Origin: Giardia intestinalis
Lineage: Eukaryota
Length of the DNA: 64,000 nt
Assembly: GCA_000002435.2 (NCBI GenBank)
Contig: CM018792.1
Strand: one strand, 5' to 3'
The notes under the pieces were generated by a model. It saw nothing but the letters and a program-made list of their open reading frames with translations, searched no databases and had not been told where the DNA came from. Below, piece by piece: positions 6,125 through 58,446 of this stretch. The translations under genes and the position numbers were made by a program. Each line of letters starts with the position of its first letter. Position 1 is the first letter of the stretch.

Positions 6125-6487
6125 AAGATACTTTTTTAATTTTCTATTTTTTTAACTTGAGGCGCAAAGTTCCCGGTAGATCCTCACCGGCGTCTCTGAA
6201 TCCTCTAGAACCAGCGCCCCTTGACAACAATGCTACCAAATAGCTGGGACAAAAGAGATTACCTTGGCCGGATTAATTAGAGCCGGCCAGAAAACTTGAA
6301 TAAAGGTGGACGGCGCCAGCCGGGACAAGGGCAGGACCATCCTGGCAGCTGCCTCACAGCCCGGCTGCCCCTTGCATGTAGTGGATCGGCGGTTAAGCCG
6401 ACGAAACAGTAACTACACTAAAGTCGAAGCCGACTCTGATTTTAATTTTTGCCTGCAGCTAATTTTTCCTTGCAGCTTCTGCTCGGT

Positions 6488-20491: not shown

Positions 20492-20895
20492 GTAGACTGA
20501 TTTAAGTTAAAGGACCAGAAGATGCATGTTCTTGCTTGTTCCATCAATCTATGCAAGTGAGAGAAGAATGGAATTTTCTATGAACTTCATGGTGATGTCT
20601 CAGCCCCCCAAGATTCTGTTTCCCCTTAAGCTGACCTCTAAGTCTCCCAAAGCATGGCACTATAGTGGCCAATAAGGGCGTGTATCTCTTTGGGATACTC
20701 TCTTTGGGGTACACTGCCTCAGTAAATATCAAAACAGAGTGTTTTGTGTCGAAAACCCTTTTAGTCGATCTACTCTCATGAATAGTGACTAATTGTTGTC
20801 GTGCTTAGCTCGTTATGAAAGTCTGCTGAAGGGGAGGTGAGCCGTGCCATTAAAAAAGCAAGCAGCAAAGTCTTTTGGGCAACACTCCAGAACTG

Positions 20896-21399
20896 ATGGA
20901 TGGGGACTGGGAAGACGAAGTTCCTCTACCAGAGGGAAACGAAAGCCGGCTGAGTGACGCCGTGGGACGGATGTTCTGTCACTGCGGTAATGAGGTAAAG
21001 ATAAGCTGCATATGGAGCAATGGCACTTGGAAGATTCTTTATACGTGCACGACAATTCTCAGTGGACAGGAAACGCACGGCCACATCAAGGAAGAGGTAA
21101 CGTCTGCTGTCCTTGATCAGCTGCAGGATGCAGACCTGCGGACCCGGGCGATGACGGTGAGGCCTCGGCAAACGGAGGGGAGTAAGACGTTTGGGAGTCT
21201 GAGCGTGGCTCAAATAGAAAACATACTGCTGAATCCAGTTTTGGAGAGAATGATAGATAAATGCCCCCTATGCAACATGGTCGTTCCAATGGTTGTTTGG
21301 CAATTGAGTCTTACGGAGATGCGTTTCGCATATATCTGCACAAATTGCAAGCTAGCATCCGATATGCGCGACGTCGTCGCCTGCAGTGAGAGCAGATGA
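20896..21399 (+). CDS. Hypothetical Cys-containing protein (about 167 aa), possibly a zinc-ribbon type
   Basis: The track ORF 20875 starts at TTG. The first ATG is at 20896, with an AT-rich stretch (CCATTAAAAAAGCAAGCAGCAAAG) upstream. CHCG...C and CPLC...C..C pairs are present. No recognised family. Confidence 0.35.
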   Translation: MDGDWEDEVPLPEGNESRLSDAVGRMFCHCGNEVKISCIWSNGTWKILYTCTTILSGQETHGHIKEEVTSAVLDQLQDADLRTRAMTVRPRQTEGSKTFGSLSVAQIENILLNPVLERMIDKCPLCNMVVPMVVWQLSLTEMRFAYICTNCKLASDMRDVVACSESR

Positions 21400-21451
21400 A
21401 GATTCCATTTCAAAATGGAATTCGGCTAACCCAAAAAGGAGTTCTCGAGAA

Positions 21452-21685
21452 ATGCCCAACACAATCACAGAGGAGAACCTCATGAAGATGATCGCAGACG
21501 GCCGAGGAAAGAAGCTTGTGGTCAAGTCCTGTAGCAAGGGGAGGCTGCAGGGCAAGGTCAAGCTGAAGCTCCGCACAGCGAAGTATCTTTACACCCTGAC
21601 GGTTCCCAATGCTGACGATGCAAAGAGTATTGTGAAGGGTTGCAAGGATAAGGTGGAGGTGCAATATGTCAACGACTCGGAGTAA
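21452..21685 (+). CDS. RPL38: Ribosomal protein L38e
   Basis: MPNTITEENLMKMIADGRGKKLVVKSCSKGRLQGKVKLKLRTAKYLYTLTV... matches the eL38 core (KFKVRCSRYLYTLVI). The stop TAA is embedded in an AGTAAAT poly(A) signal (21681-21687). Confidence 0.85.
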   Translation: MPNTITEENLMKMIADGRGKKLVVKSCSKGRLQGKVKLKLRTAKYLYTLTVPNADDAKSIVKGCKDKVEVQYVNDSE

Positions 21686-21687
21686 AT
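21681..21687 (+). terminator. AGTAAAT polyadenylation signal overlapping the L38e stop codon
   Basis: The Giardia-type AGTRAAY motif, here GAGTAAATAC, with TAA as the stop. Confidence 0.5.
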
Positions 21688-21715
21688 ACGCCGGCGGCGG
21701 CTCTGTGCAAAAATC

Positions 21716-25168: not shown

Positions 25169-25293
25169 TGATCAATGTAAATTTTCATCCATTAATGCTG
25201 CAATTTATATGGTATTGCACGAAATGGCACTGCAATGGTTATGCATTTTAAATTGATTTTTGTCCTACAAATTGGACCCGAAACGACTGAGCC

Positions 25294-25563
25294 ATGCAAT
25301 CGGATGACATCGGGATGAAGAACAGCAGCGGAGTGGTCGTAGACGCATACATACCGCGCAAGTGTTCAGCAACAAATAGGCTCATTGGCCCGAAGGACCA
25401 CGCCGCAGTCCAGCTGAGCGTCGCCAGGGTTAATGATAAGGGCAAGATGATCGAGAACAACTATGTTACATTCGCCTTCTGCGGGGCCATCCGCAGCCGA
25501 GGCGGAGTGGACTCGGCCTTCATGCTCCTCGCCCAGGAGCACGGTCTCATGGAACGCCTTTAG
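25294..25563 (+). CDS. RPS21: Ribosomal protein S21e
   Basis: MQSDDIGMKNSSGVVVDAYIPRKCSATNRLIGPKDHAAVQLSVARV...FAFCGAIR matches the eS21 pattern (..YVPRKCSASNRIIgAKDHAS.Q.nvaev....AiCGAIR). An AGTAAAC poly(A) signal lies at 25584-25590. Confidence 0.85.
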   Translation: MQSDDIGMKNSSGVVVDAYIPRKCSATNRLIGPKDHAAVQLSVARVNDKGKMIENNYVTFAFCGAIRSRGGVDSAFMLLAQEHGLMERL

Positions 25564-25583
25564 GTTGCCGCATACACCGGCCA

Positions 25584-25590
25584 AGTAAAC
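25584..25590 (+). terminator. AGTAAAC polyadenylation signal about 20 nt after the S21e stop
   Basis: CCAAGTAAACGC matches AGTRAAY. Confidence 0.45.
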
Positions 25591-25638
25591 GCTCTGATAC
25601 TTGCTGTATTCCTGCGTTGATTTACACAGCCTTCGGGT

Positions 25639-50759: not shown

Positions 50760-53700
50760 ATGGCCGCTATGCTAAAAATTAAGGGTGTTCACTTCCAGTT
50801 TCCGTTTGAGCCATATCCCTCGCAGATAGAGTATATGAGTTCCCTTATTACGGCCCTGAATAAGAAGGAAAATGCCTTGTTGGAAAGCCCGACAGGCACC
50901 GGAAAGACACTTTCTCTGCTTATTCCCGCAATAGCTTATCAGGAACAATGTATTAGCTTTCTAAGTCTAGTAACCTCGCTTTTGAAGAAGTGCAAAGCTG
51001 GAGCAATCATAGCAGAGCCTACTGGAGCACCTACGTTATCTAGCAGTGCACCGCTAATGCCGCCAGACGTGGGTAAGCTTTTAGAGTGGACAGATCAAAC
51101 GTTAGACTTTCGAGACAGTGTCATCATAGATAGCAAGCTCAAAAATATAAGGCTCAATGATACAGCTAGGTGGGTAGCAGAACGACCTCCACCCAAGATT
51201 CTTTATGCTGCCAGGACCCATGCACAGATAGAACAGGCCATAAGACAACTAAAGAAGCATGTGACCATCTCTGATGCATCAGGTGACAGCAGATCTTTCT
51301 TATTATGGCCTATCGCCATGCTAGGAAGCCGCCGTATATTCTGCATAAACGAAAGAGCACACACTTATGCTGCAGCTGCAAATATCACACTAGGTATGGC
51401 ATGCAAGAAACTTTGCGACGACAGACAGTGTAGATATTACTCTAGTGACGGAGATAGTGATGATCTTGCACAGAAATACAGGGAGTATTACTGTGAGAAT
51501 AGTAATGGGCGATTGGATGATTTAGAAGACTTCCTGGGATACTGTAAGAACGAATCAAGGTGTCCATACTATTTGGGAAGAGCTCTCGTGCCACAGGCTA
51601 GGGTGGTTACTGCCCCTTATAACTATATACTCTCCAGTAAGAACAGGACATCCGAGCTTTCTTCTATGCTTCGAAATAGCATACTCCTTGTAGATGAAGG
51701 TCACAATATCGGCCAAGCATGCTGTGATACTTTTTCTGGCAGTGTTACTACTGACGCTCTTTTGAAGGCCTCCGAGGAAATTCAGTACTTACAGAAGGTA
51801 GCAGCAGCACAGCGGATGGGACCCGGTAATAAGGCTGCAACAATAGAGTTAGAGGGAAATTGGCTTTCAAAGACTAATCCTTGTGGACCCGCCACCTCCT
51901 ACACAGGGCTCCATGAGCCCAAAACAAAACTTATTCGGCAGTCAGTGACACGCCTCTACAGCTTATCGGATGCTCTGCCGCCGCAATCAGACATTGATGT
52001 GATATTCAATTTGATTAACCTCGTTTCAAAATACTTTGTAGACAAGCTTGCAGAGATAAGTGGGAATGCGCCCTTCAGCTTTGCCGTTCACGATCTTTCT
52101 AAAAAAGTTTATGAGCTGCTCTTGGCCACAGACTTCGAGTCTGGTGACCATAGTGCACCGTCAACACGTGTCTCTAGAGCGGCAACCGATATCGAAACTG
52201 CCAGATTCTATCTTTCGTCAAAGCCTATAGCAACTCATACAGATGCGGTCCAAACTTTACGCAAGAAACAGCAGCAGTTCTCCCTGTTAATTGACACCCT
52301 ATCCATCCTCATCCAATGTAACCCAGGCCTAGCGCCAGAGTATGCAGACAAGCCCTTACATTTACTAGAAGCAAGTGATTTCATATTGGCAATCAGTGAC
52401 ATCATGGTCTACTCTCAAACAGGATCTGAATTTTGCTTTGTTGTATCCAAACAGAAAGAAAATGACACTATTTCTAAACCAGCTAAGCCCAAATCTGCAT
52501 GTAGAATGAGTGAAGTTTTGAATAACGTCATAAGGAAGCATTCGGCTACTACAGTGCCGGCCATATCTAGCCAGGCTGGATGGCAAGTGCACCTACTCTG
52601 TATGACTCCAAAATCCATCCTCAAAACCATAGTCCTAGGGGAGAGTGTGCATTCTCTCGTCTTGACAAGTGGAACCCTAGCGCCCTTCTCGGCGCTCCAA
52701 GCAGAGCTTGGATTGTCTTTTGGCATATCTGTATCATGTCCTCACATAGTGCCACCCAGTAATTACTTATTTAGGGCTATCACGGCTATAACAGGAACTC
52801 CGTTATTGGGTATATATAAAAATAGGGAAAGCAAGTCATATCAGAAACAGTTAGGGTATGCTCTCCAAGCATGCGTACGTGGTGTGGTGGGAGGAACCCT
52901 GGTGTTCTTTCCATCATACAAGTATATGGCGCAGGTTCTGGATTCTTGGAAAGCGGACGGTACTGAAGCAGAGCTTAAGTCTAGCACCCATGGAGATCCT
53001 CGTGACCTGTTTGTCGAACCATTGAGGCAGCAAGATTGTAACGCAGTGATAAAGAAGTACAGGGATAGCTGTGACGCAGGACGATCCCCGATACTTTTTG
53101 TGATTTGCCGCGGAAAACTAGCTGAAGGAATTGACTTCAGCAACAACTACTGCAGATGCGCCCTTGTCATATCACTCCCCTATCCAAACATCTCTGACCC
53201 TCTGCTTAAGGCAAAAATGGATTGGCTTGACAAGCACTCTGTTCTGAAGGGAGGTGACTGGTATTCTGTACACGCATATAGGAGTGTCAACCAGGCGTTA
53301 GGCCGTGTCCTACGACACAAAGACGACTACGGATGCATGTTCCTCCTAGATCAAAGGTACTCCATAGAGATAAGCAGAAAGCAGCTCTCCGGATGGCTGG
53401 CTGATCAACTTGTTTCTACAGAACTGGCTGGGACAGGCGTACAAACGGAGAAAATATTTGCAGAAACACGCGCCTTTTACTCTAAGCGCACATTGTCTTC
53501 GTCCCCAGAAAGTGCGAAAGGTAGTAATCCATTTGACAGGATGTCAACTACAAGAAAGCTAGAAGAGCCAATATTTAAAACAAAGGACGAATTGGGCCTT
53601 TTGATGCAAGAGTTTTCCAATCCATTGAAGATTAAAAAGGCTACGGAACATTCTACTGCAATCTTGGATGAAACATCATCGGCTACTTATCAGCTACTGA

Positions 53701-53939
53701 CGAAGTTCAAGGGAAGGCTTACGGAAGTAAGATACAAGCAGCTAAAAACTCTTCTGCGTGATGTACAGTTGGTACAGAAAAGCGACCAAAAGAGAGTTCA
53801 GAAACTATGCAGTGATCTGGCAATTTTGCTGTATAGCCGTACTTTCTCCCAAGAGGTGAGTGACCTACTCAAGGTTCTAGAGCCTCACGTTGCGTCGGAA
53901 CTAGAAACCCAGATCAGATTCCTACAGAAACGATCTTAA
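50760..53939 (+). CDS. Fe-S cluster DEAH-box DNA helicase of the Rad3/XPD superfamily (RTEL1/FANCJ/Chl1-like; 1059 aa)
   Basis: N-terminus KIKGVHFQFPFEPYPSQIEYMSSLITALNKKENALLESPTGTGKTLSLLIPAIAY (family pattern FPF.PY..Q...M.....LESPTGTGKtL.LL). Fe-S cysteines CKKLCDDRQC...C.....CPYY. DEAH box LLVDEGHNI. Motif V ICRGKLAEGIDFSNNYCRCALVISLPYP. Motif VI QALGRVLRHKDDYGCMFLLD. Confidence 0.85.
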   Translation: MAAMLKIKGVHFQFPFEPYPSQIEYMSSLITALNKKENALLESPTGTGKTLSLLIPAIAYQEQCISFLSLVTSLLKKCKAGAIIAEPTGAPTLSSSAPLMPPDVGKLLEWTDQTLDFRDSVIIDSKLKNIRLNDTARWVAERPPPKILYAARTHAQIEQAIRQLKKHVTISDASGDSRSFLLWPIAMLGSRRIFCINERAHTYAAAANITLGMACKKLCDDRQCRYYSSDGDSDDLAQKYREYYCENSNGRLDDLEDFLGYCKNESRCPYYLGRALVPQARVVTAPYNYILSSKNRTSELSSMLRNSILLVDEGHNIGQACCDTFSGSVTTDALLKASEEIQYLQKVAAAQRMGPGNKAATIELEGNWLSKTNPCGPATSYTGLHEPKTKLIRQSVTRLYSLSDALPPQSDIDVIFNLINLVSKYFVDKLAEISGNAPFSFAVHDLSKKVYELLLATDFESGDHSAPSTRVSRAATDIETARFYLSSKPIATHTDAVQTLRKKQQQFSLLIDTLSILIQCNPGLAPEYADKPLHLLEASDFILAISDIMVYSQTGSEFCFVVSKQKENDTISKPAKPKSACRMSEVLNNVIRKHSATTVPAISSQAGWQVHLLCMTPKSILKTIVLGESVHSLVLTSGTLAPFSALQAELGLSFGISVSCPHIVPPSNYLFRAITAITGTPLLGIYKNRESKSYQKQLGYALQACVRGVVGGTLVFFPSYKYMAQVLDSWKADGTEAELKSSTHGDPRDLFVEPLRQQDCNAVIKKYRDSCDAGRSPILFVICRGKLAEGIDFSNNYCRCALVISLPYPNISDPLLKAKMDWLDKHSVLKGGDWYSVHAYRSVNQALGRVLRHKDDYGCMFLLDQRYSIEISRKQLSGWLADQLVSTELAGTGVQTEKIFAETRAFYSKRTLSSSPESAKGSNPFDRMSTTRKLEEPIFKTKDELGLLMQEFSNPLKIKKATEHSTAILDETSSATYQLLTKFKGRLTEVRYKQLKTLLRDVQLVQKSDQKRVQKLCSDLAILLYSRTFSQEVSDLLKVLEPHVASELETQIRFLQKRS

Positions 53940-55972
53940 GCCGCCGTTCTCTCGTTTCTCAGTAACACCAACCTTATTAGCAAAGTATTGACCTACTGAA
54001 AAATATCTAGCTTAATGCATAAAAAAGCGTTCACCAATAATCTAACTTTCCAACGAAGTATAGCTATATGTACTTACAGAACTCGGTAGATTTATAGACT
54101 AGAAGTGTGGTTCCTTCAGAAGCATGCCCTCTGTACGTATTGATACAATAGTAACGAGTAACCACGTTTCTCGTCAATACGTGCAGCACAGAAATCACTA
54201 GAGCTTATAGAGAGCAACAATCCAAGTACGAAGATGGATATCTCACAGTTATGCGCCTCAAAGTAATGTTGATTCACTTGTGATATCCGAGGAACACAGA
54301 GCATGTGAGCTAGGCACACAGCAGAGAAACTGGTCGCTTTACTAGCTAAGCTGTCCGAGCAGACGTGCCTGTTGCCCTGCAGAAGACAACTGCTGCACTG
54401 CTCAGGTGGAGCGAGCAGCTGAAAGGCCGGTAGATAAGTGTCCCTTATCGCACCGAGGCTGTGGTGCGTGAACGGGGCGAGTGTGCCAATCTTGCTCGGA
54501 TACATGCGCTGCGACAGTCGAAGACGAGAGTCTATGTCTCCACACATAAGGGAAGCAACAAGTGAGTGCTGCAGCGCGCCCGACTACCGGTGCAAGGGGG
54601 ACGATGAGGCACCTCTGGCTGCGTTAAGGATGACAGCGTACAGCAGCCCTAGCTCCCGAAGAAGGCCTTTGAGAGCAACCGAGACTCGGGGGCTGAACAA
54701 GGGGCAGCATGGTGCGAAGGGCTAACAATTTAACCCGGATTGACTCTAGTGCAACACAACGGTTCTCTCGGACCGCTCTTTGCAGCTTGGGATCCTGGGA
54801 AGCGAAGAGACCAGGAAGTCAGGTCATATCCTTACGACCGCAGGCACAACAGAGGACTGTGCAGGCACCCATTCGTCACACAGGGTAGTAAATCGTTAAG
54901 GGGGCTCAAGACAGTTGAATCCCACCAGATCTCTCAGCCGACAGCCAGAATGGCGGGTGTCCCCCTACGTTCCACCAGGCAGCGTCAAACATAGCAGAGG
55001 TCTGCCGGAAATGCACCAGATGCAGTCAACGCTTTTCTGGGTGTAGTGTTAACAGAATCACACACTACGATGCGCCTCAGACAGGCTCCACCTGGCAGCG
55101 GCGCCCCAGAGACGGGCCCCGAGGGACAAAGTATCTCCGGCCCTGTCCCTGCTCCAATGCGAGGGGCCTGTAGACAGAGCCGAGGATGGGGGCCAGTGCT
55201 CGGCCTCCTGCTGGTGCGGTGGCGCCGGGAGACCACCGGACCATCGACTCGGCCGCGGCAACCGGCGGAGCGCCCTGGGCTGCTGCTGTGTCCACACGCC
55301 TGGAGCGCGCCGCAGCAGCCCGGGATGGGTCCGCAGACAGGCGTGCCGCCCCAGCCGTCCCGGGGGCCGGCTCCTCGTGGCGGGCGGTCCTGCTCCCTTT
55401 GACTTTTCAAATGGAGAACGCAGTTATGGACCCTAGCTCTGCTGCAGAAGGTGCCTTATGAGACGCAGCACAATCACACCAAGCGGTATTGGGGCTGAGC
55501 ACTCCTTGGGACGGGCTCTTGGCGTATCTGAGAGACGCTCGTTGCTGTGCACTGCCTCTTGGGCCTTGGATGCACGTTGTGCAGAGCTGCAGGAGTCGCC
55601 CTTGCAGTTGTCGGTGGGCCGTTGATGGAGCCATTGAAAGCTCTGGACCGCTACTGGACCGTACTGTCCCAGTGCACGTGTGGCAGCTTTGATTCGCACT
55701 GGATGATCCGTACAGATTGCAACGGAGCCACGAGGTGCACTAGTATGACATACGCATTGAGACAGTCGCAGTTCTGTTCGGCTCAATCCACCTCCTTCTG
55801 GCCCTGTGCCGAGATTGCAGATTGCAGAGTAGTGTCAGCGATAGACCCGGTGAGTGTTGATTCCATCAGCGCCTGTGGTCAACGTGCGTCCGAAGGATCA
55901 ATCAACTGCATCAATCGACGCGGATTGACTGATGTACCGCGAGTATGTTCCTACCAATCTATCAATCGGGCA
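53940..55972. other. About 2-kb apparently non-coding region with a roughly 70%-GC core (about 55080-55420), between the helicase gene and the VSP gene
   Basis: Only short overlapping ORFs, on both strands and in several frames, with Pro/Arg/Ala-rich nonsense translations typical of GC-rich non-coding DNA. No AT-rich initiator context. This spacer is unusually long for this otherwise compact window. Confidence 0.4.
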
Positions 55973-58186
55973 ATGTTTGGCAGTTTTGTTCTCGCGGGGG
56001 TACTCGCTCAGATTGCATGGGCAGGAAAAGCAACAGAGCGCGCGGCTCACTGCGCAGATAACACTAATTGCGCAGCAGACGCATGCAACGTTCTGATCGG
56101 TGGTAAATTGTATTGCTCTCGATGTAACACAGGATTTGTTCCTATCAATGGACAATGTGCAGACAAAGAAGGTGCAACAGATAAGTGCAAAGATGGCTCC
56201 GGAGGCGATACAGCTGATCAGACCTGTGGACAGTGCGCCGAGCAGACTTTCATGTACAAGGGCGGCTGTTACGAAGCAGCCCAGCAGCCCGGACAGACCA
56301 TGTGTCAGGCGGCAGATGCTGGAGTATGCACACAAGCCGCGCAAGGATACTTCGTGCCGCCGGGCGCAGACGCCTCTCACCAGTCGGTCATACCATGTGG
56401 AGACGAAGAGGAAATAACAGTTAAAAACGATAAAAAGTACAAGGGCGTGCTGCACTGCACTCGGTGTAACGCTCCCACAGAAGCAGCAGATGCTAACGCC
56501 AAGGCCGCCACGTGTACTGCGTGCGGCGATAGCAAGATCGTCAAGACAGCCAAGGACTCAGCCACCTCCTGCGTGACAGAAGAAGAGTGCACCGGCACCG
56601 AAGGGTTCTTCGTGAAAAATGGCGGCACCAAAACCTGTGAGGCGTGTGATCCTGGTTGCAAGACCTGTAAGACCGAGGCTGCGAAGTGCACCTCCTGTAA
56701 GGACGACAAGCCGTACCTGAAGAAGGATAATGGCAGCGACACTGGCACGTGCGTCACCGAAGCTGAGTGCAAGACTGGAAACACCCACTACCCCGACGAC
56801 ACTGAGCCGAAGACGTGCAAGACGTGCGCCGAGGGGACCTCCGACGGGTGTGCGACGTGCGAGAAGGGCGCCGATGGAGCAGTCGCCTGCAAGACGTGCG
56901 GGTCTAATAAGAAGGTCCAGCCAAACAAGAAGGGGTGCATAGCAAAGTGCCCGGAGACGGTGAGTGCCGAGAAGGATGGCGTTTGTGAGTGCGTCGAGGG
57001 CTACGTTCCCGACAACGCGGGCACCGGGTGCACGAAGAAGCCCGACCCCCAGTGCAACACCCCCGGCTGCAAGACGTGCAGTGAGCCGAAGACAAGCAAG
57101 GAGGTGTGCACAGAGTGCGAAGACCCCAAGGCCCTCACGCCCACGGGCCAGTGCATCTACGGTTGTGAGCACCTGGAAGGCTACTACGAGGGCACCAGCG
57201 AGGGGGGCAAGAAGGCCTGCAAGAAGTGCGAGGTCGAGAACTGCCTCCTGTGCAACGGGCAAGGACAGTGCGAGACCTGCAAGGACGGGTACTACAAGAG
57301 CGGAGCCGCCTGTGCCAAGTGCAATACCTCGTGCAAGACGTGCGCGAACGGGAACTCCAACGGGTGCACGAGCTGCGAGCCTAAGCAGGTCCTCAGCTAC
57401 GAAGGAGAGGGCACGGGGACGTGCAAGCCAGGCTGCAAGCCAGTGAGCGGCGGCAAGGATGGAACGTGCAAGAGCTGCGACCTGAACATAGACGGGACAA
57501 GCTACTGTTCTGCCTGTAACGTGGGCACGGAGTATCCAGAGAACGGCGTGTGCGTCAAGAAGTCGGCCCGCACAGCCTCCTGCCAGGCAGAACCGAGCAA
57601 TGGTGTGTGCGGGACATGTGCAAGGGGCTTCTTCCGCATGAACGGGGGCTGCTACGAAACGACCAAACTCCCTGGAAAGAGCGTCTGTGAGGAGGTAGCA
57701 TCGGCCGGCGATACCTGTCAGACTCCGGCCGACGGATACAAGCTGAATAATGGCGCGCTCATCACTTGCTCGGCCGGATGTAAGACGTGCACCAGCCAGG
57801 ACCAGTGCGACACGTGTAAGGCTGGATATGCTAAGGATAGTGGTAACACTAAGAAGTGTGTTCCCTGCGCCACTGGGTGCTCCGAGTGCAATGCGGACGA
57901 CGCCACCAAGTGCACGGTGTGCGCTGCAGGGTACTACCTGTCCAAAGAAAAGTGTATAGCATGCGACAAGAGCGACGGGGGATCCATCACCGGCGTCGCC
58001 AACTGCGCTAGCTGTACTCCCCCAACCAACAATAAAGGGTCTGTCCTCTGCTACCTCATACAGAACACCAACAAGAGCGGTCTCAGCGCGGGCGCTATCG
58101 CGGGGATCTCCGTGGCTGTCATCGTCGTTGTGGCTGGTCTCGTAGGGTTCCTCTGCTGGTGGTTCATCTGCAGAGGCAAAGCGTAG
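55973..58186 (+). CDS. vsp: Variant-specific surface protein (VSP), 737 aa
   Basis: Signal peptide MFGSFVLAGVLAQIAWA. About 12% Cys with many CXXC motifs. GGCY motifs (MYKGGCYEAA, MNGGCYETT). A C-terminal TM segment AGAIAGISVAVIVVVAGLVGFLCWWFI is followed by the invariant CRGKA-stop. The track ORF extends 426 nt upstream in frame (from an ATG at 55547), but the signal peptide fixes the start at 55973. Confidence 0.9.
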   Translation: MFGSFVLAGVLAQIAWAGKATERAAHCADNTNCAADACNVLIGGKLYCSRCNTGFVPINGQCADKEGATDKCKDGSGGDTADQTCGQCAEQTFMYKGGCYEAAQQPGQTMCQAADAGVCTQAAQGYFVPPGADASHQSVIPCGDEEEITVKNDKKYKGVLHCTRCNAPTEAADANAKAATCTACGDSKIVKTAKDSATSCVTEEECTGTEGFFVKNGGTKTCEACDPGCKTCKTEAAKCTSCKDDKPYLKKDNGSDTGTCVTEAECKTGNTHYPDDTEPKTCKTCAEGTSDGCATCEKGADGAVACKTCGSNKKVQPNKKGCIAKCPETVSAEKDGVCECVEGYVPDNAGTGCTKKPDPQCNTPGCKTCSEPKTSKEVCTECEDPKALTPTGQCIYGCEHLEGYYEGTSEGGKKACKKCEVENCLLCNGQGQCETCKDGYYKSGAACAKCNTSCKTCANGNSNGCTSCEPKQVLSYEGEGTGTCKPGCKPVSGGKDGTCKSCDLNIDGTSYCSACNVGTEYPENGVCVKKSARTASCQAEPSNGVCGTCARGFFRMNGGCYETTKLPGKSVCEEVASAGDTCQTPADGYKLNNGALITCSAGCKTCTSQDQCDTCKAGYAKDSGNTKKCVPCATGCSECNADDATKCTVCAAGYYLSKEKCIACDKSDGGSITGVANCASCTPPTNNKGSVLCYLIQNTNKSGLSAGAIAGISVAVIVVVAGLVGFLCWWFICRGKA

Positions 58187-58192
58187 ATGTAC

Positions 58193-58207
58193 ACTTAGGT
58201 AGTAAAT
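58193..58207 (+). terminator. VSP-type extended polyadenylation signal ACTTAGGTAGTAAAT (contains AGTAAAT)
   Basis: It sits 7 nt after the VSP stop codon and matches the conserved VSP 3' element ACTYAGRTAGTRAAY as I remember it. Confidence 0.7.
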
Positions 58208-58446
58208 GCGTCGATGAATTCTGTTTGTAGGTCTGACTCGGAAGTTGCATGAATAACTCAATCTGGCTGTATTAGGAACAGGGACAAACCACAACTAATA
58301 GGTTAAAGATTTTCTTCTTCAGTTTTGAGCTCAATTCCAGGGTGGTCTCTGGATCTCTGAACTTGATACGCTGGCCCCCGGGTTTGACGACAGTACTACC
58401 TCCCGTCTCAAAAAGCATCACAAAGTGGTTTACAATCACCGATCAG

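Follow-up and report, generated by a model that had tools for sequence, protein, structure and literature searches.

The region at positions 53940-55972 of a 64-kb stretch of Giardia intestinalis DNA (hereafter the window) measures 2033 bp and extends from the stop codon of a helicase gene (53939) to the start codon of a gene for a variant-specific surface protein (VSP; 55973). It very probably represents a non-coding, extended 5' flank belonging to a VSP gene that is competent for expression; as such, it is one more member of a class of sequences that has already been described. An earlier note, made from the letters of the window, had named several candidates for this region: an unannotated non-coding RNA (ncRNA), rDNA-derived or VSP-associated sequence, a regulatory or recombination element, and a relic. 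VSP-associated sequence is the description that was borne out by our analysis: a long, GC-rich, non-coding flank abuts a complete VSP gene. The spacer is long, its GC content is high, it contains no genuine open reading frame (ORF), and a complete VSP gene follows it directly.

The VSP Gene and the Class of Its Flank

The VSP gene (55973-58186, plus strand) encodes 737 aa with 28 CXXC motifs and displays the hallmarks of its family, namely the signal peptide MFGSFVLAGVLAQIAWA, a C-terminal transmembrane segment, the terminal CRGKA, and a Pfam VSP match with an E-value of 1e-142. The protein is identical to XP_001709528.2 / KAE8303639.1, annotated as "VSP" of Giardia intestinalis WB C6, and shares a 90% cluster with AAK97086, "variant-specific surface protein WB/9B10-B". 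VSP9B10B, in turn, is "most likely" ORF 137618 / VSP-8, a dominant VSP of WB C6 by proteomics (PMC7332775). The initiator is the Kozak-like CAatgTT (55971-55977, plus strand), kept as TCAatgTT in P15; the initiator consensus PyAatgTT was defined in PMC2996952. Just past the stop codon lies the VSP-specific extended polyadenylation signal ACTTAGGTAGTAAATGC (58195-58211, plus strand), a motif defined in PMC3091692.

Rodriguez-Walker et al. 2022 (bioRxiv 10.1101/2022.03.07.483299) reported a median length of 1280 nt and a mean of 2131 nt for VSP intergenic regions, compared to 79 and 392 nt genome-wide, and, in the 2 kb that precede VSPs, a GC content of 53.9% vs. 45.2%. According to Xu et al. 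2020 (PMC7000408), the surroundings of VSPs are gene-poor and show higher allelic variation, and the P15 genome paper (PMC3091692) described VSP islands with raised G+C. The region studied here is in good agreement with the known VSP 5' flanks (PMC2996952, Adam et al. 2010; PMC7000408; bioRxiv 10.1101/2022.03.07.483299). It is located directly before a complete VSP gene with a PyAatgTT initiator, its length is 2.0 kb vs. a mean of 2.1 kb, and the 2 kb upstream of the VSP gene have 55.5% GC vs. 53.9% (the whole window has 48.5%). A single doubtful ORF and structural variation between isolates complete the resemblance. Two features set it apart from the known flanks: this VSP gene keeps its position between assemblages A and E, where the P15 genome paper (PMC3091692) called positional conservation of VSPs between assemblages rare, and the flank has a sharp GC peak of 72-77%.

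Coding Potential of the Gap

The 2033-bp gap is real non-coding DNA. We trained a codon-usage log-likelihood model on the window's own genes; per 50 codons, it assigns scores of +5 to +18 to the genes on either side of the region. Within 53940-55972 no frame is consistently positive, and all six lie near or below zero. Three-base periodicity is absent in every sub-segment (P 0.08-0.9), the controls helicase, VSP, and pyruvate kinase (PK) all reaching P<=0.006, and a Pfam search of the full six-frame translation of the region revealed no family, just a sub-threshold chance match of 16 bits. Codon log-likelihood, periodicity, and Pfam are thus in accordance with the earlier observation that about 2 kb carry no convincing coding potential. 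The term "ORF-free", which had also been used, is correct with respect to coding signal and incorrect with respect to the public annotation, which places an ORF of 143 aa inside the region.

This ORF (54116-54547, minus strand) is the annotated hypothetical GL50803_005629 (GL50803_5629) and matches XP_001709527.1 exactly. Among ten ORFs that were looked up exactly, only the VSP and GL50803_5629 are present in public protein sets. A real small protein-coding gene at this place would mean that the region is not gene-free; such a gene could draw on its presence in RefSeq and on the coverage of its DNA by transcript-shaped contigs. In AII, however, the frame is shifted by a 20-nt insertion at a DNA identity of 98%, and in P15 it is interrupted by a 689-bp indel and by stop codons. 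The protein forms a cluster with a single member, neither a homolog nor a Pfam domain was found for it, its codon log-likelihood lies below or close to zero, and its ATG lacks an upstream AT-rich initiator. Furthermore, many hypothetical genes adjacent to VSPs show no transcription or translation and are probably not genes (bioRxiv 10.1101/2022.03.07.483299). A real gene is highly improbable here. Because it is broken in both AII and P15, has neither homolog nor domain, and shows non-coding codon usage, GL50803_005629 is probably spurious, and its removal from the annotation is advisable.

The companion statement that intergenic spacers elsewhere in the window run from 3 to 350 bp holds roughly. 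It overlooks a spacer of 470 bp at 25169-25638, with weak or no coding signal, and a weak-coding stretch of 1.2 kb at 20492-21715, whose only ORF is a TTG-start frame of 174 aa with a low codon score. Neither of the two is GC-rich.

Layout of the Locus in Other Assemblages

The window originates from Giardia intestinalis WB, as indicated by the match to the Gl_U2 small nuclear RNA (snRNA) and by the exact identities of the VSP and the 143-aa ORF. To compare the layout of the locus, helicase orthologs were located and their contigs compared; the contigs of two more distant orthologs end too near the gene to inform. In assemblage E (P15), the helicase is followed by 2877 bp without a called gene, a VSP of 739 aa, and then PK. 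The same order is found in WB, where PK lies downstream of the VSP gene on the opposite strand, at a distance of 260 bp. A genome with a 72%-identical helicase, which we take as assemblage-B-like (L016), has a helicase-PK distance of 760 bp and no VSP gene, and its 760-bp spacer (44% GC) has no detectable similarity to WB or P15. VSP gene and flank form one unit, which A and E share and the B-like genome lacks. In size, the B-like spacer is close to the sum of the AT-rich left segment of the WB region (365 bp) and the 260-bp gap between VSP and PK. Such similar sizes would be in keeping with the GC-rich block having been inserted.

Sequence Conservation along the Flank

As a rough neutral yardstick, we used the four-fold sites of four flanking housekeeping genes, at which WB and P15 are 71.4% identical (924 sites). 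The flank aligns to P15 as a mosaic of blocks of about 50-82% identity with indels of 689, 173, 115, and 82 bp. Moving from the helicase to the VSP gene, identity to P15 amounts to 75% at 53940-54304 (about 98% to AII), 72% at 54367-54573, 63% at 54588-54899, 76.5% at 55007-55411, 53% at 55412-55757, and finally 82% at 55758-55972. By this alignment, identity in most of the flank does not exceed that of the neutral yardstick.

The short interval 54305-54366 is an indel hotspot, at which P15 carries an extra 689 bp and AII an extra 20 bp (at about 54360). It is a compositional boundary as well, with a step in GC from about 0.42 to about 0.58. On its left, the AT-rich, helicase-proximal segment (53940-54304; 365 bp, 39% GC) is probably composed of the helicase 3' untranslated region and ancestral intergenic DNA. 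The GC-rich non-coding 5' flank of the VSP island comprises 54305-55972 and has 58.9% GC.

The VSP-proximal block of about 215 bp (55758-55972, plus strand) deviates from the yardstick most clearly. Here, 171 of 208 alignment columns are identical, which corresponds to a z of about 3.4 above neutral sites, and conservation in the block far exceeds that of the VSP coding DNA, for which WB and P15 share 65% nucleotide and 57% amino-acid identity. Its conservation makes a promoter or control region likely at this place.

The published primers for vsp9B10A (GL50803_101074; PMC7066823) match the window at 55954-55983 and 56031-56043, i.e., at -19 to +11 and +59 to +71 of the VSP gene, after which the sequences diverge. 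Because of these primer matches, the gene at 55973-58186 and vsp9B10A share their 5' end, which is shown only for 55954-56043. A primer match followed by divergence is reminiscent of the groups of vsp genes with near-identical 5' regions and divergent coding sequence thereafter, which are mentioned in PMC2996952 with reference to its ref. 28. A regulatory or recombination element, as proposed in the earlier note, is hence plausible for parts of the region, given the 215 bp whose conservation surpasses that of the VSP coding sequence and the 5' end shared with vsp9B10A, and not for the region as a whole.

The GC-Rich Core

The claim that some 350 bp in the center of the region are far more GC-rich than the flanking coding DNA is confirmed. 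The GC content of 55080-55420 is 71.8%, windows of 200 nt peak at 0.77, and the best window of 340 nt reaches 0.732 (z = 5.9 above the window mean), the next-highest peak elsewhere being 0.647. The core is both the GC maximum and the sharpest GC peak of the 64-kb window. No G4 motifs were found in it, and its observed/expected CpG ratio is the same as the window average. Searches within the window for repeats, tandem repeats, and palindromes, together with self-BLAST and tblastx, revealed neither copies of the flank nor a motif. Oligomers of 24-32 nt conserved between A and E had no match in two exact-pattern scans of a metagenome collection.

The core is not protein-coding, because the mismatches between WB and P15 are spread evenly across codon phases and all six tblastx frames behave alike. 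The 85 mismatches fall into the three phases as 28/31/26 (chi-square P=0.80), while those of PK do so as 11/1/147, and tblastx of the core gives equal scores in all six frames. For none of the core frames was a related protein found among 5.8 billion clusters.

Several observations weigh against the interpretation of the region as a largely neutral VSP flank. First, the core aligns to P15 without a single gap over 360 nt (55007-55366, identity 76.4%), whereas in the other blocks of the flank a gap opens 4-8 times per 200-360 nt, and the absence of indels hints at a constraint beyond that of a neutral spacer. Its identity is marginally above neutral as well (76% vs. 71%), with a nominal z of about 2.3 that is uncorrected for picking the block. 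Second, a stretch without stop codons (55547-55972, plus strand) lies in frame with the VSP gene. For its 142 open codons, a first-order Markov simulation gives a P of about 0.007; 13 of them (9.2%) encode Cys, and TGY codons are enriched in this frame (13/4/8 in the three frames, P=0.04). Third, G. muris, which might have polarised an insertion in A and E against a loss in B, is not syntenic at the locus.

The first of these observations might be explained by an unannotated gene for a structured ncRNA in the core (about 55000-55420). In addition to the indel-free alignment of A and E at 76% identity, such a gene could be supported by a small AT-rich island, TTTGACTTTTCAAA, which is located at the 3' edge of the core (55395-55412) and conserved in P15. 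Known Giardia ncRNA genes (PMC3510501) are similar in being intergenic and GC-rich, with an AT-rich element at one edge. The z-score of the minimum free energy (MFE) of the core relative to shuffled sequences, -1.9 for the plus strand, would speak for such a gene as well; with -0.9 for the minus strand, the core nevertheless folds no better than shuffles.

Rfam models, among them those of rRNA, RNase P/MRP, SRP, snRNAs, and small nucleolar RNAs (snoRNAs), were searched in two settings. At the gathering threshold, U2 is the only match in the whole window; the permissive search gave no match at E<=10 in the WB region or at E<=1 in its P15 ortholog. The covariance-model scan that had been suggested for RNase P/MRP, snRNA, and snoRNA families thus left the region without a match. 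The same holds true for the idea of rDNA-derived sequence, since none of the SSU, 5.8S, and LSU models of Rfam matches at E<=10.

The snRNAs, snoRNAs, and RNase MRP RNA of Giardia have a 12-nt 3' processing motif in common (Hudson et al. 2012, PMC3510501), and we scanned for it as [T/A/C]C[C/A]TT[T/C][A/T/C][C/T/A]T[C/T/A]AA. The U2 gene served as internal positive control: the only exact match in 64 kb, ACCTTTATTCAA, overlaps the 3' end of U2 and has AT-rich sequence just upstream. Within 53940-55972 there is no exact match and one match with a single mismatch, which corresponds to chance frequency. The AT-rich island at 55395-55412 does not fit the ncRNA 3' motif HCMTTYHHTHAA either.

An alignment-based test for structure points in the same direction. 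With RNAalifold, a test of low power on two sequences, the WB/P15 alignments of all blocks and both strands yielded z-scores of +0.8 to -2.1 vs. column shuffles and structure conservation indices (SCI) of 0.44-0.70; the core itself reached z of -1.0 and -2.1 and SCI of 0.65-0.70. The identity of the core barely exceeds the four-fold-site level. The transcript-shaped contigs described below stop at 54687, short of the core. Unlike the known Giardia ncRNA genes of PMC3510501, the flank lacks the 3' motif, an Rfam family, and a structure signal, and its locus is absent in the B-like genome; the ncRNAs known from Giardia show conservation across WB, P15, and GS (PMC3091692). With no Rfam family, no 3' motif, and weak z-scores of both MFE and alignment shuffles, the claim of a structured ncRNA could not be substantiated, and we consider such a gene very improbable.

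Alternatively, the core could be a DNA element that is selected for a function in the service of the VSP gene, e.g., a chromatin boundary, a platform for nucleosomes or histone modification, or a recombination hotspot. The lack of indels, the slightly raised conservation, and the sharpest GC peak in 64 kb would be in line with this explanation. Furthermore, work cited in PMC7066823 ties the expression state of vsp genes, vsp9B10B among them, to the acetylation of histones at their 5' upstream sequences. On the other hand, the excess of conservation is small and, in addition to the choice of the block, depends on only two orthologs, and no motif, repeat, or palindrome was found within the window. 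We regard a selected element of this kind as quite improbable. A functional element specific for A and E that is formed by core and AT-rich island together, be it transcribed as a long non-coding RNA or active in chromatin or recombination, is of similarly low probability. If true, the core element would help to decide the expression of the VSP gene or its exchange with vsp9B10A.

Returning to the interpretation as a VSP flank, the core is probably not a gene. Its GC content of 72% would most likely be compositional, a product of the GC-rich and recombination-prone environment of VSP genes, for instance by GC-biased gene conversion.

The Open Frame Upstream of the VSP Start

The stop-free stretch at 55547-55972, judged non-coding here, has been annotated as coding before. 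The first WB annotation of the VSP, XP_001709528.1, has 853 aa and uses an upstream ATG within the stretch, while the current VSP has 737 aa; Xu et al. 2020 (PMC7000408) used the signal peptide to redefine the start codons of WB VSPs. The earlier note saw in the stretch a possible relic of an older VSP 5' end. More generally, the flank could be a decayed gene, i.e., such a relic or the remains of a pseudogene or retroelement travelling with the VSP gene. Its open frame, its Cys content, and its TGY codons would fit, and intergenic remnants similar to VSPs and to reverse transcriptases have been reported near some VSPs (PMC7000408; bioRxiv 10.1101/2022.03.07.483299).

The scattered Cys residues, on which the proposal of a relic was founded, are indeed present, yet they include one CXC and a single CXXC; the density of VSPs would call for about 5 CXXC, and the VSP itself has 28. 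DNA patterns with CXXC spacing occur 11 times in the region vs. about 5 expected; several of these are palindromic double counts, and the number is far from VSP density. Rodriguez-Walker et al. (bioRxiv 10.1101/2022.03.07.483299) define pseudo-VSPs by similarity to VSP, CRMP, or SCRP proteins and by at least 4% Cys and at least two CXC/CXXC/CXXXC motifs in one frame. For 55547-55972 we obtained 9.2% Cys, one CXXC, and one CXC, and no similarity to VSP, CRMP, or SCRP proteins.

Similarity searches did not connect the stretch to VSPs. The translation of the 142 codons has no Pfam VSP match, tblastx reveals no similarity to the adjacent VSP, and a query composed of the extension and the VSP N-terminus retrieved no homolog of the extension. 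With the 142-aa query, phmmer was run exhaustively against 1.84 billion representatives and returned three matches, none of which is a VSP and all of which are repeat-summing artefacts. The top match (E 1e-24), an animal protein with 16 SUEL-lectin repeats, was rejected because a single repeat scores only 29.6 bits. This E-value came from the summation of 12 weak matches to near-identical repeats, which calls for caution with whole-sequence E-values in general.

In P15, the frame is open for just 52 codons, and the indels of the alignment are not multiples of three. Three-base periodicity is lacking, and no domain of a VSP, a reverse transcriptase, or any other Pfam family was detected in any frame; in particular, the six-frame Pfam scan found no reverse transcriptase or endonuclease remnants of GilM, GilT, or GilD. 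The relic of an older VSP 5' end is thus not supported, given the lack of a VSP match by Pfam or phmmer, the single CXXC, and a frame that is open for only 52 codons in P15; the length of the open frame and the enrichment of Cys codons are weak hints to the contrary. A decayed gene in the wider sense is improbable as well. We therefore retain the interpretation of this stretch as part of the non-coding VSP flank.

Transcript-Shaped Contigs and Possible Breakpoints

Logan contigs from public runs terminate within the flank, those of WB-like samples at 54561 and 54687 and that of AII at 54453. The contigs of four samples end at exactly 54687, and one contig spans 50751-54687, starting 9 nt before the ATG of the helicase. 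Several contigs (among L011, L023-L025, L013, and L014) end at the 5' ends of genes, some of them with Illumina adapter. Because of the adapters and of the ends at gene 5' ends, these contigs are probably RNA-seq assemblies, which suggests that the left 750 bp or so of the region would be transcribed contiguously with the helicase mRNA. A genomic repeat as the cause of the contig ends at 54687 was considered and dropped; adapters and stops at gene 5' ends suggest transcript or coverage boundaries.

A possible recurrent breakpoint is located at 54562-54587, where contig L022 departs from the window, next to the stop of contig L013 at 54561 and together with an indel in P15. Up to 54582, L022 follows the window at 99.985% identity, with a G>T exchange at 54562, and it continues with 239 nt of unrelated sequence (63% GC). 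The 82-bp indel of P15 occupies the same spot (54574-54587). This junction is either a structural variant or a chimeric assembly join, and it fits the published higher allelic variation around VSPs (PMC7000408).

Neighboring Genes

The helicase upstream of the region (50760-53939) is a protein of 1059 aa of the XPD/RTEL type with the domains DEAD_2 and Helicase_C_2. In Giardia it is annotated as "TFIIH basal transcription factor complex helicase subunit". The best matches outside Giardia are consistently of RTEL1 type (E about 1e-80 to 1e-90, covering the N-terminal quarter to third), and because of this the name "TFIIH" may be imprecise.

The U2 snRNA gene is encoded on the minus strand at 6296-6438, with the Rfam match (Gl_U2, 178.9 bits) at 6303-6438. 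At the beginning of the window, one minus-strand frame shows a positive codon-usage signal over 1-2300, and the corresponding gene (1-2325) runs off the window start. An apparent ORF gap of 1.5 kb at 856-2338 is consequently no true gap; the ORF listing had missed the gene at the edge.

A Probable VSP Island between Housekeeping Genes

Taken together, VSP gene and GC-rich flank may be viewed as a small "VSP island" between the housekeeping genes for helicase and PK. About 365 bp on the left would be ordinary AT-rich intergenic DNA plus the helicase 3' untranslated region, and the remaining 1.67 kb or so VSP-associated spacer. By its presence in A and E, the island would have been in place in their common ancestor; it is missing in the B-like genome. 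The spacer appears to be mostly near-neutral; large indels are frequent in it, and at least one breakpoint is polymorphic. No part looks constrained except the 215 bp or so next to the start codon, including PyAatgTT. These 215 bp would most likely carry the sequences for on/off switching, and they may also provide the homology tract shared with the paralog vsp9B10A, as far as it extends over 55954-56043.

For the genome of Giardia, the finding adds one more case of a published genome-wide property of VSP loci and little that is new. Breakpoints that recur between isolates and between assemblages fit the notion of recombination-prone VSP flanks. As few VSP genes keep their position between A and E, the locus may serve as a convenient natural experiment on the upstream constraint of VSP genes, which here would concern about 215 bp.

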